DNA of 64,000 bases from Blasia pusilla (taxonomy: Eukaryota), in the NCBI GenBank assembly GCA_050084515.1, contig CM114271.1, positions 5,456,001 through 5,520,000 of the forward strand. Direction: 5' to 3'. Under the pieces are notes generated by a model that worked only from the letters and a program-made list of their open reading frames with translations, had not been told where the DNA came from and searched no databases. Of the stretch, positions 2,760 through 60,257 are shown piece after piece; position 1 is the stretch's first letter; every line of letters begins with the position of its first letter. A program made the position numbers and the translations under genes.

Positions 2760-3297
2760 TGTCACATCTAAGTAGTCGATAGGCCGAGATTTATCGTGGA
2801 TAGGGTGTAGGAGCGAACGGACTGTCTTGAGTGTAACTTTGTCTCGTGGTGTTGGATGAGGTTGAAGATAGGTCCGTTGTGTCAGGAACGTCATTTCTGA
2901 CAACTTTTCTGTTGGGGTCTTTCACAGCCGGGTGACTTGTTGAGCAGGTCACCCGCCTCTGGTAACCTGTGCGCGTAGGTTACCAGGAGGATAGCTATTT
3001 TTAGGGAAGAGCCTTTTGGCTCTTCCTAACCCTATATAAAGGAGGAATATGGCTTTCCCAAGCCATGTTTCTCATGTTGGGCCGTTGGAGCACCTCTCTT
3101 GTATGTGTGTGAGATAGGACTAGGATGCTAGCGTCCGGATTCCTTTATAGCGCAGGGTAGACGATGCTCGATATGCCGAAGTAGATTGAGGAGTGGAGTT
3201 TTAGGCCAGGTGTGTTGTTTCTACTACTCTTTATTTTTGTTATGTGATCTCCATGTATATGTATGAGTTGATTTCTGTACATGTGTGGATCTACCCG
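2760..3297 (+). mobile_element. Probable partial LTR inserted into the hAT remnant and interrupted by the gypsy LTR at 3298
   Basis: hAT coding ends abruptly at TGTCACA (2760). A TATA-like CCTATATAAAG lies at ~3030. The 3' CA terminus is not visible. Confidence 0.4.
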
Positions 3298-4305
3298 TGT
3301 CGCGCCCCTACTCTCCTTGAACGTCAATCTTTAGTGTTGCGGAAGCGTACGTTCAGTAGGTCACGATCTCATCGCTGATCTGCACTCAAACACGCACTCT
3401 CGTTAGTCGGGTCTGGGCCAACCAGCGTTCCAACCCACCGAGTTCTCAACTCGACGTCTCATCAAGCTCAACCTTCCTTAGTTCCTAGTTTCCAAAACAC
3501 GGCAAGTCCTTCAAGACTTGGAACAGACTTCCTGGTTAGTCCAGGGATCTGAAACGGCACTTGCGTGCCTAGCGATCCCAATTGTTCAACGGACCTCGTG
3601 TGAGTTCCAAACCGAGACCCAAGTAATTGAGTCCCGGGGTGAAATCCAAGAGGGATGTCTAAAATCGCCTCAATAGACTTGGTGCAGGTTTTCCAACCCA
3701 ACTCCCAAACTTGCGTTCCGTTGCATGCCCTTGAGCCGCCCAGCGGCGCCCAAAGTGGGGTTCGGGTTCCAAGCACTCTCGAAGGCCTTCCCCCTTACTA
3801 GTACTTCTGGGGTTCTCCAATAACCCCCCCCCCCCCTTTGGGAAAGGAGGGTCGGGCCCTTCATTGTGGCCCTCAACCCGACTCTACTTACAGTCGTTTC
3901 CGGGTTGTTTCTCAGCCGTTGCTAAAGCGTTTGCAGAGATCCTTAGTGCGTTTGAACCGGCTTTCCATAAGCTTTGTAACGCATCCTTATTTAATCCAAA
4001 CTCATCTTGGCGCTAAAAGTTATGGCCATAAATACAGTCGGAAACTCTCAAACGCTAGTGGCGTTCCAAATCCGGATTCTTCCTTTTGGCAACCCACTTT
4101 CTAGACTCGACTTCTTTCAAGTCTCAATCCGCGTTTGGTCCAGGTTTCTCGGTCGTGACCACAACATCTGAAACACGACGCCTCGCTCGCGTCTCGTCTC
4201 TTGTCTCCTCTTTGAGACTACTCCAACGCGCAAACCATCTTAGCGTGAGCCCGCTAATGTTCCGATGTTCCGCTTGGCACTCGTTTGGTCATGAGGGTCG
4301 CGACA
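3298..4305 (-). repeat. 3' LTR (~1.0 kb) of the chromovirus element
   Basis: Inverted termini TGTCGCG/CGCGACA; homologous along its whole length to 31483-32479. Confidence 0.92.
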
Positions 4306-4993: not shown

Positions 4994-7900
4994 CTAACAT
5001 ATGTGCTTCGCTTGTGTTCGCTTGAAGTCTCGCAACAACTCTTGCGCGTGTTCCAAATCTGCCTCCGCAATCCAAGTCGCCTCCTTCACATGGTAGCCCT
5101 TCCATTTTACCAAGTATTCATACTTGTTGGCTCGACGCCTCGAACGTAAGATGGTCTCCACCTCAAACTCCGGCTCCTCATTTATGATGACCGGGTGCGG
5201 TCTCACCACCTGTCTCCGCGCGAAACGTCCATTATCTTGAAGATATTTCTTCAACAATGACACATGAAAGTTCGGGTGAATCTTGAACTCGTCCGGTAGC
5301 CTCAACGTATACACATCCTCAAATGGGTTTGCCACAATCACATACGGTCCAACATACTTGGCAGACAGCTTCGCAGACAACTCTTTCGGAAGAGTGATGT
5401 TCTTCACACTCAACCACACTTGCTCTCCAACTTGGAATCGTACTTGGCGCTGACTCTTGTTAGCATGCTTAACGTACCTCATTTGAGCCTTTGCAAGATT
5501 TCGCCTTGCTCGCTCTTCCCGTTCTTGCATCTCCACCAACAAACCTTCTGCCGTCGCTTGTCGTGTTCGTGCCAATGTAGTACCCTTCGAAAGGGCTAGG
5601 TCAAGAGGCCCTTCTGGCTCTCGTCCATTTTCCAGGAGAAAGGAAGATTCTCCAGTTGCAGAATGCTTGGTCGAGTTGTAGCAGTACTCCGCCATGCTCA
5701 ACCACTTGACCCAATCTCATTGATCAGCACTTACATAATTCCTTAAGTACTGATTCACCATAGAGTTCACCTTTTCAGTTTGTCCATCCGTCTGTGGGTG
5801 GAAAGCCGTACTGAAACTCAGCTTGGTCTTAAACCTTCTGAACAAGTGCTTCCAGAAAGCACTGGTAAACTTTGGATCCCGATCTGAAATAATGCTCCTC
5901 GGCAAACCGTGAGCATGCCACCAGCTATCGAGAAACAGTTGCAACGTCGTATAAGCCTTTGCGGAATCCACCGTCGGCACGAATCTCGCCAACTTGCTAA
6001 ATCGATCAACAATCACAAGTATAGCGTTGTATCCCTCAGATTCCGGAAGACTTGTGATGAAATCCATACTCACACTTTGCAAGGGTCCTTCTGGGATCGG
6101 CAAGGGATGCAGCAAGCCCTGTTTCTTATCATGAGAGACTCTATTTGCTTGGCAGGTCACACAGGTCTTCACATATTGAGCAACATCCTCTTTCATGTTG
6201 GGCCAAAAGAACCGCTTCGACAGAACAGCTAGCGTAGATTTCTCTCCTTTACGTCCTGCCAAGGGTCCATCGTGACATTCCGCTAACACCTTGGTTCGCA
6301 TCCTGCCTTGCCCTACATAGATCCTACTCTGTTGAACCTTAGTAAACTGTGCCTCAAACTTATGTTGGCCACCTTCTCACCGTGCTTCAACTTCCTCAGG
6401 TACTCCCCTGCGTGAGCATCCTTCATATATCCTTCACGAATCCTTCTTTCCAGGTCTGTCTCTTTAGGGAACATTGCTTTCAAGACCTGTGTCGTCGATG
6501 GCATGTGTTCCTCCTTGCGACTCAAAGCATCTGGAATCACATTATCTTTACCTGGCTTGTGAATCAACTCAACATCCATCAACGCCAAGGTATCATGCCA
6601 TCGTAGTTGCTTCGGTGTCACTCGATCCTGGGTCTCAAAATACTTGAGTGATATATTATCGGTGAATACTCGAGTCTTGTGGAGCCCTAGATAATGCCGC
6701 CACTTCCTCAAGCAATGTACCACTGCGAACAACTCTTTCTCGTGAGTAGGCCATCTCCTTTCAGTATCGCTAAGCTTCTTGCTCTCGTATGCCACCGGTC
6801 TCCCTTCTTGCACCAACATTCCTGCAACCGCGAAATCACTAGCATCGGTATGCACTTCGAACGGTTTGTCAAACTCTGGAAGCTTCAATACTGGTTCTTG
6901 CGATAGAATCTTCTTCACTCAGTTGAATGCCTCCTTAACTTCCTGGTTCCAAGTCGTGTTGGCAAACTTTGTTGTCCAGTCCGTGAGAGGTCTCACAATT
7001 CCCGAAAAGTTTTTCACATAAGTGCGATAGAACTGCACCGCACCTATGAACCTCCTCATCCCCTTTACAGTGGATGGGGGTTCCCACTCGACAATCGCTT
7101 TCACCTTCTCCATGTCTGGACTGACGCCATCTGCACTGACCACGTGACCCAAGAATTTGATCTTGCTCAAACCAAATTCGCTCTTCTCTACATTCGCATA
7201 AAGCTGATTTGCCCTTAGCTTAGACAAGACCTCTCTCACATGTCGAACGTGCTCCTCTAGTGATTTCGAATAGATAAATATGTCATCAATATAGATGATA
7301 ACATACTCATCCATTTCCTTGTGAAAAATGGAGTTCATCAATGTGGTGAACGTCGGAGGGGCGTTACATAGACCGAAAGGCATCACTACAAACTCAAAGG
7401 AACCGTATCTTGTCCTACACGCAGTCTTCTCCACATCTGCCTCGACAATCCGAATCTGGTAATATCCTGACTTCAAGTCAATCCTACTGAAATATCTCGC
7501 GCCTGCCAGCCTATCGAAGAGATCATCTATCCTCAGAAGAGGATAATTGTTCCGAACCGTCACTTTATTCAGCGCACGGTAATCAACACACAGCCTCATC
7601 TTTCCATCCTTCTTCTTTACAAAAAGAACAGGTGCTCCATAAGGTGACTTGCTAGTCCTAATGTAACCCTTTTCCAAGAGCTCACTTAACTTATTTTTCA
7701 ACTCAAGAAGTTCCTCCTGATTCAACCTATATGGTGCTTTTGAAGGCGGTTGGGAACCAGGTATGATCTCTATCTTATGATCAACGGCTCTATGTGGCGG
7801 AAATTCAGTCGGAAGCTCATTTGTCAAGACATCCTCAAACTCCTTGACCACTTCCTGGAGTGGTTCTGGGATTCCCCTTGAAGCAGTGTCCTGATCTCTG

Positions 7901-8875
7901 CGTATTCTGCTTGAAGCCTCCTCCACTTGTCTCATCAAGCAGAGGAATCCATCCTCCAACTCGGTCATGCTCCTCCTTGTAATTGAGTTCACTAACTCCT
8001 TTTTCGCCGGAACCTCACGGACCAACCGCACCTGTAACCGTTTGCCCTTTAGCAAGACGCTCAACCTCAAGGGTCTACGTCTTAACTCCACCTCATACGC
8101 ATCTAGGAATGTATTCCCCAAGACTCCGTCAATGCCATCCATTTCACACACAGTGAAATTCTCCTTCAACTCGAATACCCCGCATCCTACTGTCAAACCC
8201 AAGACCAAATCAGAAGTCCGATGAGACTTGCCTCTGCAAATCCTACTCGAATGGGCTCATCCGCCTTAGAGGTAGACAACCCCAGTTCCTTCACGATTCT
8301 CGGGCTTAGGAAGAAGTGCGAAGCACCTATATCCACGAGCAACAACACATCGCGATCAGCAATCTTGGATCTTAGGTACACCAAATTGTGCGTCCTCTTG
8401 GTGACCTGAAGGGACGTCTCGAGATCGCCCGCCAACAGATGCTTAGCAGCAAACGCAATCATACTCCCATTACTAACCTTCGAATTCGAACACACTTTCG
8501 CCAGGTGGCCCGGTTCGCCACAGTTGTAGCATACAACCTTGCCGTTCCCTGACTTCAAATGCTGTCCTCCTTTCGGCTTCGCATGAAGTTCCACTCGTTT
8601 TCTTTGTTGCAGGCGACGACCCTGGATCGTCCGCCCCCACCTCGCACTCTTTTGAACACCTCCTTATATTTCGACTTCTTCAAAAAACCTTTTGGCTTGA
8701 AGGGTTTCTGGGTTTGGACCTCATCGTCCCCAATCCGCTCCGCCAGCTTCAGAAGATCTGCGCAGGTATCTGGCAACGTCGGCATTTGGTAAAGGGCCTT
8801 TTCAGCGCTCGGCTTGAGTCCACTAATGAAGATAGCCTTCTTCGCGTGCTCATCCATCTTTGGAATAGAAGTCAC
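4994..8875 (-). pseudogene. gag-pol (zinc knuckle, aspartic protease, RT, RNase H, integrase, chromodomain), disrupted
   Basis: CYNCGEPGHLAKVC knuckle; LLVDIGASH protease; RLCVDYRALN and YIDD (RT); HTDASD (RNase H); VSMDFI/SDRD/TDGQTE and KYVGPY (integrase); FEVETIL...YEYLVKWKGY...ATW (chromodomain). In-frame TGA at 6919 and 5717 plus frameshifts. Confidence 0.95.
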
Positions 8876-9003: not shown

Positions 9004-9310
9004 CTAAACCCCAATTACCCACCATTGTGAAACCATATGATTCTAGGTTTAGTAGCGCCTATGCATCACTCAATTACCCACCATTGTGAAACCATATGAT
9101 TCTAGGTTTAGTAGCGCCTATGCATCACTCACACTGAACCCTAATCACCCACCATCATGAAACCATATGATTCTAGGTTTAGTCGCGCCCATTCATCACT
9201 TCCACTTAACCCTAATCACCCACCATCATGAAACCATATGATTATAGGTTTAGTAGCGCCTATGCGTCACTTACACTAAACCCTAATCACCCACCACCAT
9301 GAGACCATGA
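9004..9310. repeat. Tandem minisatellite, ~71-bp unit, ~4.4 copies
   Basis: Unit AAT(T/C)ACCCACCAT..TGAAACCATATGATTCTAGGTTTAGT... starts at ~9013, 9072, 9143, 9214 and 9285; the first unit is 59 bp. Confidence 0.9.
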
Positions 9311-11699: not shown

Positions 11700-12110
11700 T
11701 CATCCTGGTCCCACCTTCGGGATATCATAATGCTCACTGAGGTTCGCTAGATACTGATTGAACTCTTCTATCTTTTGTCTATGTGATTTGCTCGCCACCT
11801 TAGCTAGTCGTCTTGTCTCCAGCTCTATCCTCTGCTCATCATATTTCTTCTCAGCTGGCGTCCGATGATCCTCGTACACAGCAAGCTGATTCTCGCCACC
11901 CTCCGATTGGTCATGTTCTCCATGTAGAGGTGATCGAATTTCGTCTGCGTTCAGTCGAAATTCGGGTTCTTCTTTCTCATTCAACTGAAGTAGCTTTTGC
12001 TCGTAAGACTCTTGCATCTTCTTCTTCTTCTTTTTCATACCGCCTGCTTTGACGTCCAGAGCCTTGCCTTTCAGCTTCAGCTTGCCACCAATAACGTTGT
12101 TGAAAGACAT
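11700..12110 (-). CDS. FAM32A: FAM32A-like (DUF1754) small nuclear protein, 136 aa, single coding exon
   Basis: N-terminus MSFNNVIGGKLKLKGKALDVKAGGMKKKKKK, then D..TPAEKKY, and C-terminus ASKSHRQKIEEFNQYLANLSEHYDIPKVGPG, all typical of FAM32A. A splice acceptor (TTTTCTGCGCAG|G) just upstream at ~12123 indicates a 5'UTR intron. Confidence 0.93.
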   Translation of the reverse strand: MSFNNVIGGKLKLKGKALDVKAGGMKKKKKKMQESYEQKLLQLNEKEEPEFRLNADEIRSPLHGEHDQSEGGENQLAVYEDHRTPAEKKYDEQRIELETRRLAKVASKSHRQKIEEFNQYLANLSEHYDIPKVGPG

Positions 12111-12853
12111 TGTCCACCAACCTGCGCAGAAAAAACATTTCAAGTTTCCCTCAGCATTTCAAAGCTATTTTGCGCCTCCTAATATTTCAGAGTAATTTTG
12201 CGTAAGGCGGTCCACCTGTTCAATTTCTCATTCCAATTTATCCTCTCCGCTGCCTTTAACAGCAACGAAAATAAAAACCATCCTCCGCAAGACCAAAATG
12301 TCGTCCCCGCGAATCCCCAGGAGGAAGATAACGAACGATCCACATGCGCGAGATCTTGCCAACAAACAGCAACACCGCCACAGCGTGATATTAAACAGGA
12401 AGTAACGTAACCCTTACAAGCTACGCTCCCTCGCACCTAACCCTCGACCCTTCGTACCTTGACTTGCAAACCTTTCCTTGCCTGATTCTCGACCTACGAA
12501 CCCTTGTAACTCACACACGCAAAACTTCCTTCCTCTCCGACAACCTACCTCTCGTACAAAATTACTCCTCCCAGCCAGAGCACCAAATCTCGCCACAACA
12601 CTCGCCGGTGTTCCTCAGACGAGACGATTGTGCGTCTACTTCACGGCATCCACACGACGCTGGCGGCAGAAAACTCCGCGCTCGCATCCGCCCGTGCTTA
12701 CTGCCTCCTTGCTCACAACTTTCACTCCTCGACGGGCCTCCTGCCACAACAATCCGAAAATCACAGGACAGCTTCCATTGCCTCGCGCGTCCAAATCGAT
12801 ACCAGTGCTCCAGATTGAACTCCAATCACACAATGCCGCAAACACGGGCTAAA

Positions 12854-13372
12854 CATCACGGGTGTAATACAAGCCCGTGATTCCCTACTATAGGTTCCTC
12901 CAACATTACCTTACTAGTACATGACAAGAATAAGCACAAGGATGGGGTTTAATTTATTCTAGCATCACGGGTGTAATACAAGCCCGTGATTCGTTTTCAA
13001 TTAAGGGTCCCTACTATAAGGCTCCTCAAAATTACCTTACTATTAGACGACAAGAAAAAGCACAAGGAGGGGGGGTTTAAGAGAAGGGCTAAACCTATTC
13101 TAACATGCATCACGGGTGTAATACAAGCCCGTGATTCATTTTCAATTAAGGGTCCCTACTATAAGGTTCCTCAAAAATTACCTTACTATTACACGACAAG
13201 AAAAAGCACAAGGAGGGGGGGTTTAAGAGAAGGGCTAATATTCTAACATGCATAACAGGTGTAATACAAGCTCGTGATTCATTTTCAATTAAGGGTCGCT
13301 ACTATAGGGTTCCTCAAAATTACCTTACTATTACACGACAAGAAAAAGCGCAAGGAGGGGTTTAAGAGAAGG
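12854..13372. repeat. Tandem repeat, ~144-bp unit, 4 copies, each with a hairpin
   Basis: CATCACGGGTGTAATACAAGCCCGTGATTC starts at 12854, 12963, 13108 and 13251 (last copy degenerate). The first unit is shorter (109 bp). Confidence 0.9.
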
Positions 13373-29375: not shown

Positions 29376-30190
29376 TACTCCCCCTCAAGCTCATATCGAT
29401 ATCTCTAACGCCTAAATCATTTCTAAACATCTCAAACTTATCTCTAGACAATGCCTTTGTAAAGATGTCAGAAATTTACTGATATGTGTCTATATACACA
29501 AGATCAATTTCTCCTGCAAGCACTTTCTCTATGATAAAATCATAGGGCACCTCAACATGTTTTGTACAAGCATGAAACACAAGGTTATTAGCAAGCTTGA
29601 TGCTACTAATATTGTCTGCATATATTACACCAGGTCCTAATTTACTAACACAAATCTCAACAAGTAATCGATGAAGCCACACCGCCTCACATGCTGGATT
29701 GGTTGCTCCTCTGTATTCAACATGTGTTGAAGATAAAGCAACTGTAGGTTGCTTCTTTGAAGCCCAACTTATAGTTGCGTTTCCCAAAGTAAATGAATAA
29801 CCAGATATGGAGTGCCGATCAGACATGCTTCTTGCCCAATTAGCATCTATGAATCCCTGTAATTGAAAACTCGGAGAAGGTTGAAATTGAAGCCCGAATT
29901 GAATAGAGAATTTCACATACCACATAATCCTCCTCACAACATCAAGGTGAGGTTTTTGAGGTGCTTGCATAAATTGGCTCACTAGGCCAACACCATAACT
30001 CAAATCTGGTATGGTTATAGTTAGATAGATTAAACTTCCAACCATATGCCTGTACATATTAGAATCTGTAAGCAACTCTCCTTCATCCACTCTTAGCTTC
30101 ACACTCTGGTCCAACGGTGTGGAGATTGGCTTACAAGTTATCATACCATATTTTGAAAGCATATGAAGAGCATATTGTCGTTGTAGTAAC
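29376..30190 (-). mobile_element. Ty1/copia fragment: end of RT, RNase H and PPT
   Basis: YRHMVGSLIYLTITIPDLSYGVGLVSQFMQAP, SWASKKQPTVALSST, HACTKHVEV, SDIFTKAL (~29450-29475); PPT TTGAGGGGGAG at ~29378-29388. Confidence 0.92.
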
Positions 30191-32570
30191 TTGACAATTG
30201 CCCTAAATCGGAATACATTGAGGTATGGGACTATTCAAGGAGTTGGTTATCGACCTACTATCCGGAGGTTTCATCAAGGAGATTATGTCTACTTGCAGCA
30301 CGACCTTGGATGTGATTGCATGACACACCATCTTGAGAGTGCGTGAGATTTTGCCATCCGATGTTCTCTTATTGGAGGGACGTGATGGTATGGTTTGGAA
30401 AGACCATGTGCGTAACTGTGCGCCATGTCATCTTCCAAACATTCACGATACAGTTGATCCGAGCTTAGCAGTAGTTCCTACAGGCTTGAGATGTATGTTG
30501 TGTGGTTTTGCCTGTGGTGCATCCACTATTTTAGTCTATGATGGATGTTCGAGAGGATGGCATATAGCATGTGTCATGCCACCTCTCACTAGGGTTCCTA
30601 AGGGAAGATGGATGTGTCCTAGATGTACATAGCGTAGGTATTTCTACGTTCCGACTTGTATCTATGATATGGATGACAATAAGGCGACTAACGATGGGGC
30701 CACATGAGCACCCGACTTTCTTGCTCTTAGCGTCTGAGAGATGTATGTCATGGTAGATAGGGATAGATGACTATCTGGAGTTAGAAGGACCTAACCACCA
30801 ACTAGGGGGGCGATTGGTGATATTTTGATACTTCTTGTCCCGTTGTTTGGATGCCATAAGTAAGCATGGGATCGTGTGTGTTTGTTTGTGTGTTCGGTAA
30901 CACCGATGTATGTTGTGTAGCATTGTGTATGCATACGACACCTGTCACCTCTTTTAGGATAGATTGGTGAGATCTAGTAGAGCGCCTTTGTGAGTAGTGG
31001 AGGACATGCTCAATAGGTCGAGGATGACGTGTTGAGGCCTCGGGAAACCTGAGAGAGCATGTTTCCCCTTCGTTTCGGCTCATTTGGAGCCATATTGAGG
31101 AATTTACTATTTTAGGTAAGTACCATTTTGAATATATGATATAATTTCTATTGTTGGTAAGTGGCCCTTGACCTCCTACATCAGGTCAAGAGCCAAGGAG
31201 GTGACCTGGGAGCATAAGTTACCATGGAGAGAGCTTTGGAGAGGGGAGGGGTATACCTCAAGGAGAGAGAGCTTGAGAGCTCATTCTCTTTTTGTTGAAC
31301 CTCTTGGCATGAGGCGGCGGAGCTATGGTCGTGCTTGCCTTGTGTGTGTAACCCAAGCCTCTCATTAGGAGAGTGGGTTTGGTTTGACATTGAGAGAGAT
31401 ATGTGAGAGTGCAAATATTTGAGATCTATGGGGTTGAGAGAGATTGGATCTTATTTTATTGGAGATATTTTGGTACTTCTTGTATCGCGCTCCTACTCTC
31501 CTTGAACGTCAATCTTTAATGTTGCGGAAGTGTGCGTTCAGTAGGTCACGAATTCATCGCCGATCTGCACCCAAACACGCACTCTCGTTAGTCGGGTTTG
31601 GCCAACCGGCGTTCCAACCCACCGAGTCCTCAACTCGGCGTCTCATCAAGCTCAACCTTCCTTAGTTCCTAGCTCCCAACACATGGCAAGTCCTTCAAGA
31701 CTTGGAACAGACTTCCTGGTTAGTCGAGGGATCTGAAACGGCACGCCTAGCGATCCCAACTGTTCAACGGTCTTCGTGTGAGTTCCGAACCGAGACCCAA
31801 GTAATTGAGTCGCGGCGTGAAATCCAAGAGGGATGTCTAAAATCGCCTCAATGGACTTGGTGCAGGTTTTCCAACCCAACGCCCAAACTCGCGTTCCGTT
31901 CCATGCCCTTGAGCCGCCCCGCGGCGCCCAAAGTGGGGTTTGGGTTCCAAACACTCTTGGAGACCTTCCCCCTTACTAGTACTTCTGGGGTTCTCCAATA
32001 ACCCCTCCCCTTTGGGAAAAGAGGGTCGGGCCCTTCATTGTGGCCCTCAACCCGACTTCACTTACAGTCGTTTTCGGGTTGTATCTCGGCCGCTGCTTAT
32101 GCGTTTGCAGCGATCTTTGGTGCGTTTTGACCGGCTCTCCATAATCTTTCCAACGCACTCTTATTTGCTCCAAACGCATCTTGTCGCTAAAAGTTATGGC
32201 CATAAATACAGTCGGAAACTCTCAAACGCTAGTTGCGTTTCCAAATCCGGATCTTCCCTTTGGCAACCCACTTCCTAGACTCGACTTCTTTCAATTCTCA
32301 TTCCGCGTTTGGTCCAGGTTTCTCAGTCGCGACCATAACACCTGAAACGCGACTCATTGCTCGCGACTCGTCTCTTGTCTCCTCTTTGAGACAACTCCAA
32401 CGCGCAAACCATCTTAGCGTGAGCCCGCTAATGTTCGGATGTTCCGCTTGGCACTTGTTTGGTCATGAGGGTCGCGACATCTTGTCTCGTTGTTTGGATG
32501 CCATGAGTTAGCATGAGATTGTGCGTGTTTGTGTGTGTGTTCGATGACAGCGATGTGTATGCGCACGACA
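30191..32570 (+). mobile_element. 3' fragment of a PHD-finger Ty3/gypsy element (integrase C-terminus, PHD, PPT, LTR)
   Basis: Colinear with ORF 34045-34839: TLRYG..GYRP, LLLEGRDGMVWKDHVRNCAPCHLPN, PHD CMLCG...DGCSRGWHIAC...WMCPRC*. PPT TAGGGGGGCGA at ~30803. LTR 30943-32570 (TGTC...GACA) is interrupted by a solo LTR. Confidence 0.88.
31483..32479 (-). mobile_element. Solo LTR of the chromovirus family found at 3298-8876
   Basis: Homologous to 3298-4305; termini TATCGCG (from TGTCGCG)...CGCGACA; perfect 5-bp TSD TCTTG at 31478-31482 and 32480-32484. Confidence 0.93.
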
Positions 32571-32639: not shown

Positions 32640-33219
32640 TTGTGTACAGGAGCATATTTACCTAAGTGTCCACTCTATTGTGGATGAGGGGATGAGTCAT
32701 ATCTATCCAACTGAATTTTTGAACACATGCTTGCCTTTTGAAATTTCTCCTCATCGTTTGTGTTTGAAGATTGGTGCACCAATCATGCTCTTACGAAACA
32801 AGAATGGATCCCATGGACAAGCAAACAAGATAAGATTGGCAATTCATGCATTCATGGATCCATGCAACATTGCATAGATGTTGAAATTATCACAGGGAAG
32901 AATATTGGAGATCGAGTCTTTATTCCACGTACACCATTGATTGCATTGGATTATGGTTTTCCATTTGATTTGTGTACGTTTCAATTCCCTATTCGTCCAA
33001 CTTTTGCTATGACTATTAATAAGTCTCAAGGTCAAACGTTGCAAAAGGTTGGAATTTACCTGCCTACTCATGTATTTTCTCATGGTCAATTGTATGTAGC
33101 ATTATCTAGAGTAGGGAAGAGAAGTTCCATCCACATTACCATTGGAAGTGATGAACATTCAAATAAGGAAGGTGACTGACTACACACGAAATGTAGTGTA
33201 TAAAGAGATACTCGGATGA
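32640..33219 (+). pseudogene. PIF1-family helicase C-terminal fragment (Helitron-derived)
   Basis: YPTEFLN...PHRLCLKIGAPIMLLRN, FPIRPTFAMTINKSQGQTL, VFSHGQLYVALSRV and terminal TRNVVYKEIL: intronless Helitron RepHel helicase motifs, with stops. Confidence 0.88.
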
Positions 33220-33262
33220 AATAAATTTTTGATTTGCAAACACTTCTCTATTTGACATGTGT

Positions 33263-33736
33263 TGTCATGCGAATCCATATCGTCATACAATATACATTGC
33301 TGACATACCATACTCACCTACATGCATAACATAGACGAGAGCATCCACAAACACAAGTGTACCACAACTGAAATCCGTGAAAGACCTACTGTCATAAAAC
33401 ACGTATAGAATCACACACAATCGAGCCAAACCCACTCCATGATGGGAGAATCCAAGTCGAAGCTTGTGGGAACCACCATAGCCAAGAGCTCTACTCACTA
33501 CCAAGGCTAACTCCCAACGCAACAGGCTCAACTCAAAGAACTAACTTTTCTTTGAGTGCACTCCACACTATATCCTCCAACCTAAGAGCAGGCCCTACTG
33601 GAAAAGTCACCCTCAACGGAGTAACCCCCAACCCTATGTATGAAACCGCATCTCTACCTAGACATTACGACCCTACATAAGGTACGACCTCTACTAGCAC
33701 ACTATACTCTACGACATAATCCGTATGGTCATGACA
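33263..33736 (-). repeat. 3' LTR (474 bp) of the DNMT-PHD gypsy element
   Basis: Perfect 7-bp inverted termini TGTCATG...CATGACA. Its last 107 bp (33263-33369) are duplicated at 33739-33845, next to the PPT. Confidence 0.75.
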
Positions 33737-34017
33737 GTTGTCGTGCGAATCCACATCGTCATACAATATTCATCGTTGACATACCATACTCACCTACATG
33801 CATAACATAGACGAGAGCATCCACAAACACAAGTGTACCACAACTCGCCCCCCTAAGTGGCGGTTAGGTCCCTCTAACTCCCAAGTAGCCCTATACATCT
33901 ACTACATGCTATACACCTTCATGGGTGCACGAATCAGAAGCCCGTGTGTTAGGTTGCCCCATCGTTAGTCGTACATCTGTAATCCATATCATGCAAAGAT
34001 CAAGTCATCTACCTCTC

Positions 34018-34170
34018 CTAAGTACATTGAGGACAAACCCACATTCAAGTAGGAACAACATCCATACGTGGAGTCAAACACATCATGTGCCAACCCCTAG
34101 AACACCGATCACACACCAACATACGGGTTGCGTTACCAGCAGACCCACACAACATGCACCTCAAGCTAGC
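34018..34170 (-). pseudogene. PHD finger (C4HC3) at the C-terminus of integrase
   Basis: CMLCGSAGNATRMLVCDRCSRGWHMMCLTPRMDVVPT*MWVCPQCT*; one premature TGA interrupts an otherwise complete PHD. Confidence 0.9.
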
Positions 34171-37138
34171 ACGTATCGTGGCTAAGCTTGGGTCAACACT
34201 TCCATCCACATTTGGAAGATGACATGGCGCACAATTACGCACATGGTCCTTCCAAACAACTCCATCACGACCCTCCAACATGAGAACTCCAGAAGCTAAC
34301 ACCTCACGCACTCGTAAAATAGTGCGGCTTGCCGTCACATCCAACGTTGTCGGTGCAATCTGCTGCAAATAGACATAGTCCCCCACATGGAGCCTATGAA
34401 TGGATGGTCGATAACCTCCACCCCAAATGGTTGCATACCGCAACGTATCCCTGTGTTGAGCAATGGCAAGATTCTCAAAGGCTGTTGGCATAACTCTCCG
34501 AAAGAGCTCTGCCCACTGAGAACACACTCTCATCCACATCTCTGGGTTGTCAAGGTTCACCACCTCACTAGACTCCCCACGAATTGCTGCTGGCACGTCT
34601 GGATCTCGGCCGTGTAACAGAAAATAAGGTGAGAAGAAAGCCAAGGATGCTTGGCGACTGAACCTATACCCCATGGCTAACCATGGCAACTGAATATCCC
34701 AGTCTCCAAGATGCCCCTTCTGTTGGCCATACTTGCGCAATGCCCTCTTCACCGTCTGAACCACACGCTCAGCCAAACCATCCGCCTCTGGATGATCTCG
34801 AGACGTGGTCCGATGATCAATCAACGCCTTGTCACACAAGACTTGAAACTCACCCTGAAACTATGTACCCTGGTCGGTCAACACCTCAATTGGTGCACCA
34901 AAATGACTAAGCACTCTATCAAGAAACGCATACGCCGTTCCCTCACTTGCATTGTCAGGTAATGACACAAACTCAATCCACTTGGAGAAGTGCTCCACCA
35001 TCACCAACACATATCGATGATGTTGTGCAGTCAACGGTAACGGTCCCGCAAAGTCCACACTCCAACGGTAACTCAATCCCATAATAGGAAAGGGGTGTAA
35101 TTGTGGTGTATGGGCATTGAATGATGCCCTCACCCGATCATAAACCATACAACGTGACACCAACAACTGCACCTGGGTATGCATGCCATGCCACCAATAC
35201 TTGCCAAGGAGTAAGCTATACGTACCCTTTACCCCAAAATATCCCAACTCCTTATGGGCATGTCGCACAATGCGCTCTCTCTAAGCCAAATACGGCACTA
35301 CTCGTACTCTACCATCCTCCCACACACGGAGAATATATGTTCCCTCCAATCAATACCTCTTAGCACGTTGAAGAACACGGTCTCGCTCCTTGGCACTCAC
35401 TATGCTTGGCACCCTACTGGTCCGTAGGAACTCCAACACCAACGCATCATCATGAATATCACGCTGATGCGTACCACCATCTCCAACCTTAGGATCTGAA
35501 GGCTGGCCATCTAACCTCTGACTATAGTAAGATGTCATGTGGTCCTCCATACTAGAGTCCACCCCTAACCAACATAAAAAGGCAGATGCATGCCAACCTG
35601 GGACCATCTCCTCATCAACCTCACCACGCCATCGAGCCTTAGTTGCATCCTCTTGGCTAGTATATGGGTTCCTACTCAACCCATGAGCATCAAGGTTGGC
35701 AACTCCAGGTCTATGTACCACCTGGAAGTCATACTCCTATAAGATAAGAGCCCACCATACAAGCTTCCCTGCAAGCTTGTCAGACTCCATCAACCACTTG
35801 AGCGGTTGGTGATCAGTAACAAGGGTAAACTATGTGCCAAACAAGTAACACCTAAAGTGTGCCACAACCCACACTACTGCTAAGCACTCTCCCTCATATG
35901 AACTATAGCGCGACTCCGTTGCATTATTCGAACGACTTGCATAGGCCACCACAAACTCCATGTGCTCATCATCATGTTGTGTCAACACCGCTCCAAGTCC
36001 CAACCTACTCCAATAAGTGTGTAACTGAAATGGGCGCCCTCTGATAGGTCTCCTCAAGATAGGCGCCGTCACCAATTGGGCCTTGAGCTCCACAAAAGCT
36101 CTCTCCTGATAACCTCCCCAATGCCACTCATGATCTGATTTCAGAAATTGCTTCAAAGGCTTTGCCATAGCACTAAATCCCTTCACATACCTCCGATAGT
36201 AGTTCGCCAATCCCATGAATGCCCGAACTCTACTCACATCTACCAGACGAGGAATAAGTGCAATAGCCTCCACCTTTGCTTGCTGAACTCCCAAACCACC
36301 TGGATAGATCACATGACCCAAGTACTCAACATCCTCATGGAAGAACTTACACTTTCCTGGATGCAAACGTAGACCATGAGCTTTCAACCGCTCAAACACA
36401 ATCTGCAAATGTATCTGATGCTCCTCCACTGTGTTACTGAACACCAAGATATCATCAATGTAACACTGAACAAAATCCAACCCTGCTAGGATCCTGTCCA
36501 TCACTTCTCTGAAACTCGGCAGTTGCATTCTTCAACCCAAAGAGTAAAATTTTCCACTGGTACAAACAATCCTTGCCATGAGAGTTGACACCCCAAAATG
36601 CTGTCTTGGCCTTGTCACTCTCCCGAATCGGCAACTGATGGTATCCTGCCGGAAGATCCAAAGTACTGAAAATCTTTGTCTGTCCCACCACATCAAAGAT
36701 CTCCTCATGTGTAGGCATGGCATACCTATCAGTCTTGGTCTGCCGATTGATAGGACGATAATCTCCACACATCCGCCCATCCGTGTAGTTGCCATGCACA
36801 TCCTTTTTAGCAAGCATGACAGTGGCTGATGCATACTCTCCATGCGACAACTCCACTAATCTAGCCTCCAAAAGGTCCAACGTCCCACTCTGAATCAGGT
36901 TCCTCTCCATATCACCATATCGGTAGGGACGACAAAAGATTGGCATATCACTAGCCAAATCAATCCGTATACCGGGTCCAACCAAAGCACCCAACTCCTT
37001 CATGCTAAAGGCAAAACAACTCCTATAAGCACGTAGGCACTGTGTCAAGCGTCGTTTCTCACCTCCCGTAAGCTTGGGCCCAAGTAATGGCTCCCAAGTC
37101 TCCTCCACTGGCACACTAGAGGGAGAGGATGACACCAT
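34171..37138 (-). pseudogene. RT, RNase H and integrase of the DNMT-PHD gypsy element
   Basis: ORFs 36455-37138, 35830-36528, 35350-35721, 34861-35268 and 34045-34839 carry gypsy RT/RH/IN motifs, separated by stops and frameshifts. Confidence 0.93.
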
Positions 37139-37389
37139 TGGCTGCTACGCAACCCCCTCACAAGATGGTACACCCTTAGCTACTTCATCATCTGACCAAA
37201 TAACTCCTCCACAAGCATGAGCAACCAACTCCACATGCCCAGCCATAACATCCCATTTACTCCAAGGATGCAAAATACTACTCTCCTCAAAAAATGCCTC
37301 TACCTTCCCGGTAGCCATCGAGCTCATCACAAGGGGTGAAAGACCCACAGACATAGTCCGAAGTCGACGTTGCTCGGCCATACCAAGAC

Positions 37390-38335
37390 TCAAAATCCAG
37401 GTCAAACAATTCAAGTCCATGGCCTGACCCAAGACATGACGTCGTGAACCCTAAAAAATGGAAGCAACCATTGTCACACCAGTAGCAAATCCCATCGCTC
37501 GCTCTCTCATCAGCGTTAGGCTCCACCAACTGTCGCACATAAAAATCCCATACAATCCCAGGACCACCTTCCCTGTAGGCATGTGACGAGGGAAAACTCA
37601 CAAATATGGGTAGTGCCATCCTAGGCTGGCCCACACGGTTCACCACTGCCATGGGTGATCGATCAATAACCCTCACTACCTAAGAAAGTCGCCCAATATC
37701 CAAGATACTATCCATTGTAAGGCAAGGATCCCGGTGCACTGCATCATATGCTCGACGTAGAACCTCCCTAGGCAACAAGTTTGTCCACCACAAGCGTGGC
37801 CGATGTGCACGCGAGCCAACTTGCGTTGCATCCAACAACACCGCTGGTCCAATCCAAGACCGCACCTCATGCACACTCGCATCATCCGGGTCCGAGTGTC
37901 ACCCAACAATGGAACATTCTCCAGAATGTAAGTTGGAGCATGTGCCTGATGAACCTGAAGATGTCGTAATACCCATAACATTTCCCCAAACAATCGAGAC
38001 CTAGGGTCGTGTAATCCCTCACCACGACCAACACGTGTATGACCCTGACATGGCCATCCAGCAATCACCAAATCCACAGGACCAACCCTCTCAAGGTCCT
38101 GCGCTCCCAACAATGTAGTGTGTGACGACAAAGCACGGTGGCACCCACGAATAGCTGATGGCGGAAACAACTCAGGAAATCTCGCATCAACTGACCAATA
38201 TGTCGGGATGAGACTCTCTTGGTCGTCTCATCTTACTCCACATACACGTATCTCCGTACAAGAATACCGGCTTGCAACACTACAACCAAACCAGTGCTAA
38301 TCCTACCAAAGAGATCTAACACACAAATGCCCTCC
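37390..38335 (-). pseudogene. C5 cytosine DNA methyltransferase domain (DNMT3-like), embedded in retrotransposon pol
   Basis: Motif I CVLDLFGRISTG (VLDLF at 38308-38322); IV DLVIAGWPCQG; VI YILENV; VIII LLDATQVGSRAHRPRLWWTNL; IX EPNADER..RAMGFATG; X RRHVLGQAMDLN. Canonical I-X order, no introns, several frameshifts and stops. Confidence 0.92.
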
Positions 38336-38343
38336 AGAGGATA

Positions 38344-41029
38344 CTACCATACAATGGGTGTAGTATCCAAAGGGGATAACCCAACTGGACTAGAAGTAGG
38401 AGTCCGCCGTGGGGCCTCCTCTTCCTCATGAGGTATAACAACCTCACACCAAGCCTCATGCACTAGGCGATCAGCCTCCTCCCGTGGTGCACCGCCTGAA
38501 CTCCAAAGTGGCACATCTAACGATGAGGATACCACTGCTGCAAAACTAGGGACCTCCTCTACCTCTTCATGCACAGGAGAATCCATAACAGAAAGGTTAC
38601 CCTCCAAAAAGTCTCCTGGCCAAGTGACTACTCCATAGAAACCAGCCACCGATGCTAACACTGTTGGGGAAGACCCTCCTGGTCGAGCCCCATAAATAAA
38701 TCTCACAGGAACATGGCTCATACGTCCATCCCCGGACTGCCAACCATGTCTATAAGACGTTGTCTCATTCCAGTAGTCCATCTGAAAATCCATCGGGTAC
38801 AATATTGCTCCTCCAACTAGTACATCATACGACTCGGCTGATGTGACCATTGCAGGTACTCCCAACCTCGAGCTATCAGTTGCATGATCTGGTCTCAACT
38901 GTACAGACAACTTCTCCCGAGTCATGAAATGAGACCTATCATTGGTTCCTCCAAGTGATGTCTGAATCTGGAATGGGCAAGGCTCAAGCTCTGACCTCCG
39001 AATACCCAAACCAATACATGCCGCCTTTCCCAACATCAAAGGTTGGGCACCAGAGTCTAACAAGACTCTATCTGGTCTATACACCTATCATGTAAGACTC
39101 ACCAATCGGAATATCCCACTCTGGTTGTCCAACATACATACACCAGGTGTAAGCCTCTCACGATCAATGGCTGGCCGGGCTGGTAATGGATCCATCTTCG
39201 CCGCTGCTGCCTGCCAAGTAGCACGGATACTCAATGCTACACATGACATAGGGGGTCACTCCACTCCAACATCCTCATCACGTGTAGCCGTAACACTCCC
39301 GCGTTCACACAACGTGGCTGCAAGCTGAAATACAGGAGTGAAGTCAACTCCTAAAGCCATCAACTCCGTGGCTGAAAACAATGGGGATGCCAACACTGAA
39401 GTTGCCATCCGCAATACTGCACTGGATGCTGCATCCGTATCTACCACACGCGATGTAGATGCCTCAGTCCCCACTGTAGGCTCCATAGGTTGCATAGGAA
39501 CCATGGATGGAGTCCTAAGCACCTCAGACAACAAGAATGACTGGGGAAGCCTAGCCTACCTCCCAGCCTCACTCCTCTGTGGGTCCAACTCCACAGTAGC
39601 ACCACGTGGCTCTGACGCTCGAGTGGCTGCTCTTATAACTGCAGCTGATGCCTCAACCTGTGCTGCACTTGGCATATAAGAGAGATCATCCCCTCCATAA
39701 GAGGTGGAAGCCCCTGCTCCCGAACCTGCTCTATGCTGGGTATCAGCCATAGTACCCAACCTCTGCTCCAACTGCTCAATCTTGGCAGCCATAGCTGACT
39801 CTGTTGTAGTGGTAGGGGTAGCCACCGTAGGCTCTCCAACCACTGGTCCACCTCTACCACCTCGGCCTCTCAGAGCTACTCCACCACGTTCGCGGCCTGA
39901 TCTCAACTCTAGATGAAGATCAAAGCAACGCTCTGGAGGATGACTTGGTCTCCCGCAATGATCACACTGAGTTGGGGCCGACTGAGGCCCATCCTCCAAA
40001 GTCCGTCTCCCATCCTCTTGGGGACAAAACCTCCTAACATGATCACCTCCACATGTCCAACATGACTGTCCTTGCTACGGGGCAGAAAATGAAGGCAATG
40101 GTCTCTGCGCAAGTGTCCCTCTAGGACCTAACTGAGGTTGGGTGTACCCCCCACAACTCCCACTACTACTACCACCACCACTACTACGAGATTGTGAGGT
40201 GAACTGCTGAACACGAGAAGTAGTAGTTGTATCCCTATTGAATGCGGATGTCACCACTCTCTCCTCCAACATGTTAAGCTCAATCTTCTCAGATAGAGCA
40301 AACACCTAGATCAATGTGGGTGAATCATCACTCATAAGAGTAGCATCACGTACCCTGCGGCGCAACTCTCTGTCCAAGATCCCATACCAAAACGGATGCT
40401 CGAGCCTCGGTCCACACCTGGGTAATCTGAAATCAAGCGTTGCATACGAGTGTATGCCTCACGAAGACTCTCACCAGTCTTTCGCTCAAATTCCTGAAGA
40501 CTCCTCAACTTCTCTGTCTTCACTCCCTGATAGTTCTTCTTCAACCTCTTGAAGAACTCTGCAATCGGGCTGAATGATGGTGGGGCACTAGTACCTCCAC
40601 TAGTATCCCCACTGGTACCCCCACTCCGGCTCGTACTCGTACCACTCAACGTCGGGTTGGCTATCATAGTAGGAGCACTACTACCAATACCACCATGGGT
40701 GATAGACACATATCACACCACAACATCTGCATATCACACCACGTATCAAACTCCTCAATGAAGTCCTCCAACTCAATGGTGCCCACTGCACTTGAGTATC
40801 GTCGTAGGCCCTTCATGGCCCCATATATCCCATCCAAGTCCGAAATCAATGGAGCTGCAACATTCGATAACAACGTAGAAGACTCACTGTTTGGAACACC
40901 CTCGTCCTCCTCTTCATCAACCGTCAAAAGTGGAAAAGATAGCCGATACCTCAATCCACTCCGTGTAAAACTACCACTGTCCGCACCACGGTCCCCAACC
41001 AGACCACCAGACAGCTCCGTGATGACCAA
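38344..41029 (-). pseudogene. gag and aspartic protease of the DNMT-PHD gypsy element
   Basis: LEDFIEEFDTWCD, LQEFERKTGESLREAYTR (gag-like), two CCHC-type knuckles, and VLLDSGAQP...YDVLVGG (protease). Confidence 0.85.
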
Positions 41030-42239
41030 CGCCGATGCCGCACCACCACCAAATCACCACCACTAAGTAACCAAGTGACGTCGATGTCGCTGTACTATTC
41101 TAGCTCTACTAGCTATGGGTGTAGGAAAACTAACCTGTCATCACCACAAGAAGCCTCCCACGGTCTACTGGTCACCACTCCAGCCTCACTACCGGTAGCA
41201 CACAAGAGTGAAACTACTCTGGAAATCAGCGTCAACCCTAACAATGGGCGCGCAAGCAAGAAGCAACGATGGAGGGGATCCAAACACAAGAAGTTAAACG
41301 ACAACCCTCTAATCGCAAATGCAAATCAAGGTCATACAATCCACCAAACGTGGCACCCCCTGAATCCACATAATCCACCACACAATTCTAACACAATAGC
41401 TACTCCGCTGATAGTCAATGACGTGCTAGTCGCACTCGTAGCACCTGAAAATATCACCTGCATGGAGAGGCTACACCGTACTATACGCTAGAGGTCCATC
41501 AACCAAAAACCCGAGATGCATAAAGCGCCTAACACATCTCTGGACAGCACCAAATGAGGTACACCAGTGTGTACACTGGCATAGTTAAGAACTCTGCAGT
41601 TAAGCGTTTTCCAGGCAGAATAGCCCAAAGAAGGGCGACCAATTATGCAACACTCAACTCACAAATCCTGCAAAAACTGCCTCACGCCCAAGCAAGCAAG
41701 CTTGCTTGCTTGCTCCTTGCTCCTTGCTCCTTACTCCGGCTCTCACGCCCCGAGCTACCAGGAGTTGCCTCGAAACGCCAAGAAATGCTCGAGACATACC
41801 CTATTCGCCACGCTTTGCCATGCTTCGCTATGGAGAGAGGCCCAACCAAGGCGCCCCCAATGGGATAGGCGTCTCCAACAACGGACGAATCACCAACCTA
41901 CCAGCCCCTCCGATCTGCTGTCCACCATAGCCAGTCCTTGAGCTAGTTTGCAAAATTTTGATTAGCAATTACTCCACAAATCCTCGACCAAAATTGAATC
42001 TGTTTCGACCAGAATTCAATTGGCCACCATAGCTATCTCTCCACAAAAAATTAGTTACAACCAAGCTCTACACTGTGAGCTAAAAATCAGACAAACTTAT
42101 TGTCCATACACCTCAAGAATCGCAAATCCGACAGCGCTTCCGCCCAGATTCATACACACAGAAATCCGTAACGCTCCATACACTCAAACAGATAGCTTCA
42201 CATGAGAGCACAATACAGAGAGCAATAGGAACCTCTCAC

Positions 42240-54799: not shown

Positions 54800-60257
<5,458 letters not shown>

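Follow-up and report, generated by a model that had tools for sequence, protein, structure and literature searches.

Why a gypsy-type retrotransposon should carry a PHD finger at the end of its integrase, and what this finger has to do with the DNA methyltransferase (DNMT) that the same element encodes, are the questions raised by a locus from the liverwort Blasia pusilla (assembly GCA_050084515.1, contig CM114271.1, positions 5,456,001 to 5,520,000). This 64,000-nucleotide (nt) stretch is called the window below, and all coordinates refer to it. To our knowledge, retrotransposons with a DNA methyltransferase of their own come from very few lineages. The original prediction, made from the letters of the window, described a PHD finger in place of a chromodomain at 34018..34839 and proposed PHD-guided integration combined with an own methyltransferase, echoing the logic of animal DNMT3. 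The PHD finger was confirmed, and the interpretation built on it was partly supported. We read the locus as a dead Ty3/gypsy-type copy from a green-lineage family with the order gag, protease (PR), DNMT3-like domain, reverse transcriptase (RT), RNase H (RH), integrase (IN) and PHD, in which the PHD would steer integration in the manner of a chromodomain and the DNMT would be a separate module; we give this joint reading a probability of roughly 0.6. The analysis covered domain identities and order, conservation, co-occurrence, decay, copy number and transcription. The element is made up of the following parts:

33200..34017, minus strand: 3' non-coding end of the element, through which family-level DNA and RNA depth runs
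34024..34158, minus strand: C4HC3 PHD finger at the C-terminal end of the integrase (Pfam PF00628 and zinc ligands read directly)
34159..35280, minus strand: integrase, with the H2C2 zinc domain at 35125-35280 (Integrase_H2C2, 43.5 bits) and the rve core from 35067 (41.3 bits)
about 34230-34415, minus strand: SH3-like C-terminal domain of the integrase, its register taken from the alignment with the chromovirus of the window
35830..37144, minus strand: reverse transcriptase and RNase H, in two frames overlapping at 36455-36531
37368..38340, minus strand: decayed DNMT3-like C5 cytosine methyltransferase (Pfam PF00145; tblastn to the DNMT of the relative P0132 in frames -1 and -3)
38344..39324, minus strand: aspartic protease region (tblastn to P0132 residues 922-1169, 29% identity, E 6e-20; D-S-G motif near 39040)
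39556..41053, minus strand: gag-like region (Retrotrans_gag 20.6 bits, under the cut-off; CCHC knuckle C-x2-C-x4-H-x4-C in the open reading frame (ORF) 39556-40074)

The claim that the integrase ends in a C4HC3 PHD finger held. PF00628 matched over its full profile (1-47 of 47) with 38.8 bits (E 9.2e-10; Pfam cut-off 24 bits; internal TGA translated as X for scoring) at ORF residues 235-279, corresponding to nt 34158-34024, and all eight zinc ligands were present in the minus-strand translation of 34021-34860 in the pattern C-x2-C-x11-C-x2-C-x4-H-x2-C-x14-C-x2-C. A Trp two residues ahead of the last Cys pair (W-V-C-P-Q-C) was invariant in a 14-row alignment of family PHDs, and the ORF stops with a TAG at 34018-34020, one residue past the finger. 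An in-frame stop, the TGA at 34045-34047, interrupts the finger after its His-Cys pair and ahead of its last Cys pair, so that the single nonsense codon announced earlier is correct for the PHD itself but not for the single RH-IN-PHD frame (34021-35829), which holds five in-frame stops. At E≤0.01, Pfam returned only PHD and, more weakly, PHDvar_NSD on this ORF, with no match to ADD_DNMT3. Among solved structures, the 56-residue PHD stretch matched 80 different PHD sequences (E≤0.01), with a KMT2C PHD in first place (1e-16).

The finger had been said to stand where two other gypsy elements of the window carry chromodomains. These elements, and a second PHD-bearing fragment, are:

4997-8663, minus strand: element 1, a chromovirus with PR, RT, RNase H, integrase, SH3_Tf2-1 and Chromo (56.7 bits)
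about 54.8-60.3 kb (54802-60251), minus strand: element 3, a gypsy element with direct repeats of ~330 nt resembling long terminal repeats (LTRs) at 54802-55135 and 59963-60251, 92% identical
30167-30632, plus strand: second integrase C-terminus and PHD fragment, from a related element (blastn 74% identity to 34078-34358; Pfam PHD 32.5 bits)

In the last ORF of the chromovirus (4997-5716), Pfam placed SH3_Tf2-1 at residues 97-158 and Chromo at 184-233. BLASTP paired residue 53 of the PHD ORF with residue 1 of this ORF, and the resulting offset of 52 projects the chromodomain to residues 236-285 of the PHD ORF. Since the PHD itself occupies residues 235-279, the two domains share one slot. The comparison thus stands for the slot and for element 1; for element 3, a chromodomain-like motif split by a frameshift was seen by eye only, and Pfam on its two pieces gave nothing. 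On the PHD element Pfam reports PHD instead of Chromo, so it does not class as a chromovirus, and its RT is 34% identical to that of the window chromovirus. The latter has one stop separating its integrase core from its C-terminal ORF. In the second PHD fragment (30167-30632) the finger is free of stops, and its third zinc-ligand Cys is replaced by Tyr.

The order gag-PR-DNMT-RT-RH-IN-PHD emerged from Pfam on minus-strand ORFs together with collinear tblastn to P0132, an intact relative of 2,811 residues that is collinear to 39324-34024 and is laid out as DNMT (1380-1481), RT, RH, IN and PHD (2765-2808 of 2811). We assign the window element this architecture because of its collinearity with P0132 and because the related protein P0192 reads gag CCHC-PR-DNMT-RT-RH-IN. 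Identity to P0132 was 50% over 882 residues for the RT-RH-IN-PHD part, and the DNMT was matched in two frames. RVT_1 (36506-36778 and 36307-36504), RT_RNaseH_2 (35836-36120, 95.8 bits), Integrase_H2C2 and rve follow each other in the order of a Ty3/gypsy pol, and the protease region (38344..39324) gave no Pfam match. The methyltransferase predicted within the same polyprotein was found: PF00145 matched at 37889-38077 (27.7 bits), on the strand of PR and RT and between the two, in a layout collinear to that of intact P0132. PHD and DNMT are encoded in one polyprotein, but about 1100-1300 residues separate them, a span filled by RT, RH and IN.

The copy is a decayed relic and is dead. Its DNMT motifs (I near 38270-38330, IV (P-C-Q) and VI (E-N-V) in 37889-38077, VIII near 37800) are spread over three frames with at least two frameshifts and one stop, and frameshifts in both DNMT and RT leave pol unreadable as one frame. 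No LTR pair or inverted termini linking the two ends of the copy were found by repeat search, self-blastn of the window or low-stringency blastn of the ends; the best end-to-end match was rejected as an LTR (E 0.11). Seven long related loci likewise displayed no LTRs, their flanks perhaps being too short. Truncation of this copy may account for the missing repeats, or else the family may be bounded by termini of another kind, such as those reported for the KnitGypsy-Dnmt3 family of the alga Klebsormidium nitens. A 109-nt direct repeat (33261-33369 and 33737-33845, 95% identical) lies in the 3' non-coding end.

With a copy full of stops and frameshifts, and a PHD that itself has a stop, two other origins had to be considered: Cys and His residues falling into this pattern by chance, or a host exon captured by this copy alone. 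A search of longer proteins with the integrase C-terminus and PHD as query returned 150 proteins at E≤0.001 among 1,123 candidates, and the best 120 of the 150 were analysed. All 120 listed relatives contain the PHD (precomputed PF00628 in 119, and P0084 by the strict C4HC3 pattern); the strict pattern is found in 116, the other four having precomputed PF00628. The finger is also encoded at 18 of 18 assessable DNA loci (described below). Together with the full-profile Pfam match and the second PHD fragment in the window, these counts refute an origin by chance or private capture.

The nearest relative is a transcript from the streptophyte alga Coleochaete scutata (P0004), with an intact RT-RH-IN-PHD and 65-66% identity; named chlorophyte members come from Haematococcus lacustris, Tetrabaena socialis, Pleodorina starrii and Hariotina reticulata, and many further members are metagenome and assembly records. 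In the window clade (P0004, P0006-P0010, P0012, P0132) the PHD ends 2-10 residues from the C-terminus, and in the chlorophyte type a tail with a median of 329 residues follows it. Precomputed PF00145 annotations were found in only 24 of the 120 relatives; phmmer with the DNMT domains of two family members (at least 50 bits) detected a DNMT in 93. Their domain orders were RT-RH-DNMT-IN-PHD in 77, DNMT-IN-PHD on proteins starting after RT in 14, and DNMT-RT-RH-IN-PHD in two. The nearest relatives of the window copy (P0004, P0006-P0010) are all cut just upstream of RT, where a DNMT lying further upstream would escape notice. Chlorophyte-type relatives (P0033, P0067 and 75 others, and the metagenome loci L002-L015) have the DNMT between RNase H and integrase, unlike the window clade.

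The pairing was also approached from the side of the methyltransferase, by searching exhaustively with HMMER for matches to the DNMT portion of P0012. This returned 1,555 cluster representatives at E≤0.001, 373 at ≤1e-10 and 37 at ≤1e-30, and the best 150 were classified as follows:

39 of the best 150: IN, then PHD
3 of the best 150: IN with at least 260 residues after it, no PHD pattern
19 of the best 150: protein ends before the PHD place
21 of the best 150: RT but no IN
68 of the best 150: DNMT only, mostly short proteins

A PHD was therefore present in 39 of the 42 relatives whose PHD place could be assessed. In one of the three exceptions (P0274) the PHD is truncated short of the last Cys pair, and the other two (P0233, P0278) have another C-terminal domain instead, with a PTM_DIR17_Tudor Pfam match of 21.8 bits, under the cut-off; these Tudor-like tails hint that the reader slot could be exchangeable. 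No chromodomain was found among the 150 with the window chromodomain as query, which is a weak test. A word-based homologue search with the DNMT gave only four proteins, none from Klebsormidium, and an ESM Atlas match of the DNMT was left unused as evidence, as it led to generic DNA_methylase clusters, the first mostly Streptophyta, with two phage clusters equal in score.

Scanning metagenomes with P0010 yielded 21 loci of the chlorophyte type, 38-55% identical. The PHD is encoded in 18 of these, and the other three end ahead of the PHD place. A DNMT was found in 14 of the 15 loci with enough upstream sequence, the exception being L013; L007 has a weak partial DNMT match only and was counted in neither group, and the remaining five loci begin at IN. 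By the counts from both sides, PHD and DNMT are tightly co-inherited rather than independently distributed, and their pairing is the standard build of a large green-lineage family and not a peculiarity of the window element.

A FastTree phylogeny of the IN-to-PHD region (123 rows, with the window chromovirus as outgroup) placed the window copy in a nine-row clade (support 99) with the Coleochaete transcript, P0010, P0006-P0009, P0012 and P0132, of which P0012 and P0132 are DNMT-RT-IN-PHD proteins. All RT-DNMT-IN proteins fell into one 105-row clade (support 97), within which three DNMT-less subclades are nested. A quick IQ-TREE search (LG+G4) with 54 of these rows and P0192 again gave the window copy a well-supported clade (seven rows, support 99) and the chlorophyte type another (39 rows, support 97); P0192, with its gag-PR-DNMT-RT-RH-IN layout, joined the clade of P0014/15/17 (support 95). 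As the root rests on a single very long outgroup branch, either position of the DNMT may be the ancestral one.

The type of each domain was assessed by comparison to characterized proteins. With the DNMT of P0012, 29 DNMT3A/B/C sequences came first (E 1.1e-6 to 1.3e-5), followed by M.HaeIII (4.4e-5) and chain 4onj (1.5e-4), the latter named only 'DNA methyltransferase' in the database and presumably a plant DRM. Motifs I, IV, VI and VIII stand in the normal order in both P0132 and the window copy, and motif VIII, S-x-A-H-R-x-R-x-[FY]-W-x-N, is common to the family DNMT and DNMT3B in the alignment. Among 98 family DNMT segments, the catalytic Cys is kept in 94, motif VI E and N in 94 each, and motif VIII R, W and N in 97, 96 and 96, respectively. 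The residue preceding the catalytic Cys is the unusual Glu in 56 of the 98 and the usual Pro in 24. By these likenesses the family DNMT is classed as DNMT3-like.

For the PHD, a profile was built from 14 family fingers spanning the clades (12 invariant columns), which matched 117 solved sequences at E≤0.001. The best 60 of the 117 included CHD4, KMT2C/D, ATXR5, KDM5A/B/D, Lid PHD1, WSTF, DPF2/3, BAZ2A/B, PHF12, KAT6A/B, PHF21A, EHD3, ORC1b, UHRF1/2, AIRE, CHD5 and PHF10, and no ING, BPTF or TAF3 finger was among these 60. Of the proteins matched, KDM5A/B (PHD1), PHF21A, AIRE, CHD4/5 and DPF2 are described as readers of histone H3 unmethylated at lysine 4 (H3K4me0) in the accessible text of PMC6979384. 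The signature C-D-x-C-x-x-G-[YW]-H-x-x-C-L-x-P was found in the alignments to be common to the family, KMT2C and DPF2. For the remaining profile matches we assume the reader classes generally ascribed to them. By this resemblance, the family PHD is placed nearest to solved fingers that read H3K4me0, and not to the aromatic-cage readers of H3K4me3. H3K4me0 is also the mark read by the ADD domain of DNMT3. The proposed echo of DNMT3 is supported as regards the DNMT3-like enzyme and the likely H3K4me0 kind of the reader, but not as regards the reader domain itself, which Pfam identifies as PHD and not ADD.

Some PHD fingers bind non-histone partners, as stated in the accessible text of PMC3241642, and the window clade is without the acidic cluster of the chlorophyte clade. 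The finger might accordingly bind a host protein or nucleic acid, contribute to the structure of the integrase C-terminus as a zinc module, or act in nuclear import or multimerisation. We regard a non-histone role of this kind as quite improbable, given that the family profile matches histone-H3-binding PHDs with E-values from 1e-25 to 1e-12, that the PHD sits in the slot of a known histone reader, the chromodomain, and that a Tudor-like tail (a weak Pfam match, as above) takes that slot in two of the 42 elements.

The state of the family in its host was examined by mapping to 33200-41600 at 80% likeness or more, with two sets of DNA contigs and two runs of stranded raw RNA reads, all from the same organism; the indexed public runs contain up to 0.48 of the sequence words of the window. 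DNA contig pieces on the element numbered 187,642 and 4,811 and were spread over all 30 bins, and the family is highly repeated in the liverwort. It is also transcribed, with 5,485 and 5,457 RNA reads on the element in the two runs. In the bin 34043-34323 the RNA depth was 185 versus 10 and 210 versus 6.9 on the two strands, and across the PHD bins it was 125-210 versus 1-10 on the opposite strand; this strong bias indicates minus-strand, element-sense transcripts, provided that the libraries are of the usual kind. Over gag the depth is about 20-30, and it climbs to 125-210 in the integrase and PHD region. Nearly all reads disagree with the window copy at many positions, which marks these as changes confined to it; one such change falls within an in-frame integrase stop. 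RNA reads (16 and 29 in the two runs) also join 34490 to 35499 with nine other letters between, and the listed row for this joint has no DNA contig; it probably represents a transcribed family copy with about 1 kb of the integrase replaced, and not an intron. RNA fragment ends cluster at 33575, which may mark the 3' end of the transcript.

Chromodomains steer chromoviruses to chromatin methylated at lysine 9 of histone H3 (H3K9). In the joint reading that we favor, the PHD would play the corresponding part: it would stay on the integrase in intact copies and anchor the pre-integration complex on nucleosomes lacking methylation at K4 of the H3 tail, and this tethering would steer insertions away from active promoters marked by H3K4me3. 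The DNMT3-like domain would be a separate module that methylates DNA de novo, and de novo CG methylation by retrotransposon DNMTs is described in the accessible text of de Mendoza et al. 2018 (PMC5890265).

A closer partnership, in which the DNMT of the element is guided or activated on H3K4me0 chromatin by the PHD, as DNMT3 is by its ADD domain, is the stronger claim of the original prediction. The site of such an action could be the polyprotein before processing or, with the chlorophyte domain order, a mature protein composed of DNMT, IN and PHD. The tight co-inheritance (93/120 and 39/42) agrees with this coupling, as do the DNMT3-like nature of the enzyme and the closeness of the PHD to H3K4me0 readers, and it is most plausible in the 77 of 120 relatives with the DNMT directly upstream of IN-PHD (RT-RH-DNMT-IN-PHD). 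In the window architecture, on the other hand, RT, RH and IN separate the two domains, and the finger is no ADD by Pfam. The nested DNMT-less subclades retain the PHD, which argues for a DNMT-independent role of the finger, and two DNMT elements have a different C-terminal domain in its stead. We therefore consider coupling unlikely. A broader proposal is slightly less doubtful, though still tentative: the H3K4me0-type PHD and the DNMT3-like enzyme might make up a reader-writer cassette that one gypsy lineage has passed on as a unit since ancient times. The cassette would predate the chlorophyte-streptophyte split, survive in two domain orders, persist as a high-copy and transcribed family in a land plant, and pick H3K4me0 chromatin to write 5-methylcytosine there. 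If true, ADD-DNMT3 logic would have a mobile counterpart here, one that could shape the methylomes of its hosts and might share ancestry with cellular DNMT3.

Several observations weigh against the favored combination of PHD-steered integration and a separate DNMT. The copy at hand is non-functional and has no recognizable LTR pair, and the RNA reads are mostly 90-99% alike to it; since just 35 of the 5,485 and 31 of the 5,457 are at least 99% alike, the transcripts come from other copies. The PHD TGA at 34045-34047 is absent among the difference rows listed (40 of 1,494). Among the 120 relatives, 24 have RT and IN but no DNMT between them and three were not assessable, although many of the 24 begin only 54-200 residues before RT, where an upstream DNMT would be invisible. 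Retention of the PHD on the integrase and release of the DNMT are both presumed in this reading. The H3K4me0 preference is predicted from likeness to solved PHDs, and specificity may differ between the clades, since G-D-x-R-R, with its basic residues, stands in the window clade at the place of the acidic D/E cluster that precedes M-L-L-C-D in the chlorophyte clade. Some of the solved fingers nearest to that of the family also have other targets: CHD4 additionally binds H3K9me3, and the tandem fingers of DPF3 and KAT6A read acetyl-lysine (accessible text of PMC6979384).

The closest described system is KnitGypsy-Dnmt3 from K. nitens (PMC5890265), likened here by its published description. As far as the accessible text describes it, it too is a gypsy-type element whose pol ORF includes a non-rearranged DNMT of the Dnmt3 kind, and its host is likewise a streptophyte; its copies are silent and methylated in the host and have unusual terminal repeats, as opposed to the window element, for which no LTR pair was found. 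The main text and one text supplement of that paper mention no PHD, which Figure 4c or the PDF supplements might show. The host here is a liverwort, a land plant, in contrast to Klebsormidium. The window element is a liverwort-hosted, decayed member of the Gypsy-DNMT3 kind.

Chromoviruses (e.g. MAGGY, Tcn1 and CRM; REXdb classes in the accessible part of PMC6317226) share with it the pol order, the SH3-like integrase domain and the slot for a histone reader, and the same role, chromatin-guided integration, is proposed for both. The window element differs from them by its zinc-binding PHD, by a predicted preference for H3K4me0 instead of methylated H3K9, and by the extra DNMT; the accessible part of the REXdb survey (PMC6317226) mentions neither a PHD nor a methyltransferase. 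PHD fingers as such are no rarity in transposable elements: they are a 'common accessory domain' in those of C. reinhardtii (PMC8557442) and 'widespread' in retrotransposons (accessible text of PMC6673714), and accessory PHDs occur in CR1 non-LTR elements, in REM1 and Chlamys of Chlamydomonas and in cnidarian retrotransposons. None of these reports (PMC8557442, PMC6673714, 10.1101/2021.11.30.470311), in their accessible text, describes a gypsy element that has a DNMT and whose integrase ends in a PHD, and the cnidarian fingers are described there as PYGO-like H3K4me readers (10.1101/2021.11.30.470311), a subtype unlike that of the window family.

Like the DNMT3 family, the element combines a catalytic domain nearest to DNMT3A/B/C with a zinc-finger reader of the H3K4me0 kind in the same polypeptide. 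DNMT3 has an ADD (a GATA-like finger and a PHD) next to its catalytic domain; the element instead has a plain PHD behind RT-RH-IN at the far C-terminus, and it is without a PWWP domain. EpiLTRs/DAM-LTRs (bioRxiv 10.64898/2026.05.21.726589) similarly join one or more DNA methyltransferases to a chromatin reader in what the accessible text calls a 'complex epigenetic toolkit'; they differ in having a chromodomain reader, DAM together with a DNMT4-related DNMT, and Euglena and Collodictyon-type hosts. The same preprint, in its accessible text, cites the streptophyte Gypsy-DNMT3 without a PHD finger. In the searchable literature text, including PMC9998398 and setting figures, PDF supplements and Repbase outside its scope, no description of PHD and DNMT in one gypsy element was found. 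The near-obligate PHD-DNMT pairing, its two domain orders, its green-lineage breadth, and its presence and transcription in a land plant are thus apparently undescribed in such text.

Taken alone, the locus is an ordinary dead transposon copy; the family pattern that it exposes is coherent, testable and apparently undescribed. It suggests a far wider distribution of DNMT3-bearing gypsy elements in the green lineage than the single published Klebsormidium family would indicate, and it offers a testable hypothesis of insertion targeting, toward H3K4me0 rather than methylated H3K9, for which the window provides a natural comparison of chromodomain and PHD gypsy elements within one genome. Should PHD and DNMT act together, the family would carry on a transposon the kind of histone-guided de novo methylation that animal DNMT3 performs.

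The surroundings of the PHD element are a nest of transposon fragments. The second PHD fragment (30167-30632, plus strand) adjoins a copia-like RT/RNase H fragment (29476-30234, minus strand), and a Pif1/Helitron-like helicase fragment (32742-33179, plus strand; weak Herpes_Helicase Pfam match) lies just downstream of the PHD element. A 1-kb direct repeat (3297-4305 and 31482-32479, 91% identical) has one of its copies between the two PHD-bearing fragments, and self-comparison of the window revealed short tandem repeat arrays at 59099-59213, 12882-13372 and 9004-9308. Elsewhere in the window, an intronless FAM32A-like ORF (11703-12158, minus strand; Pfam FAM32A, 54 bits) points to a liverwort as the host, most likely a species other than the three that it matches best: it is 76-77% identical to proteins from Marchantia paleacea, M. 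polymorpha and Riccia fluitans, and less so to those from other bryophytes and seed plants.

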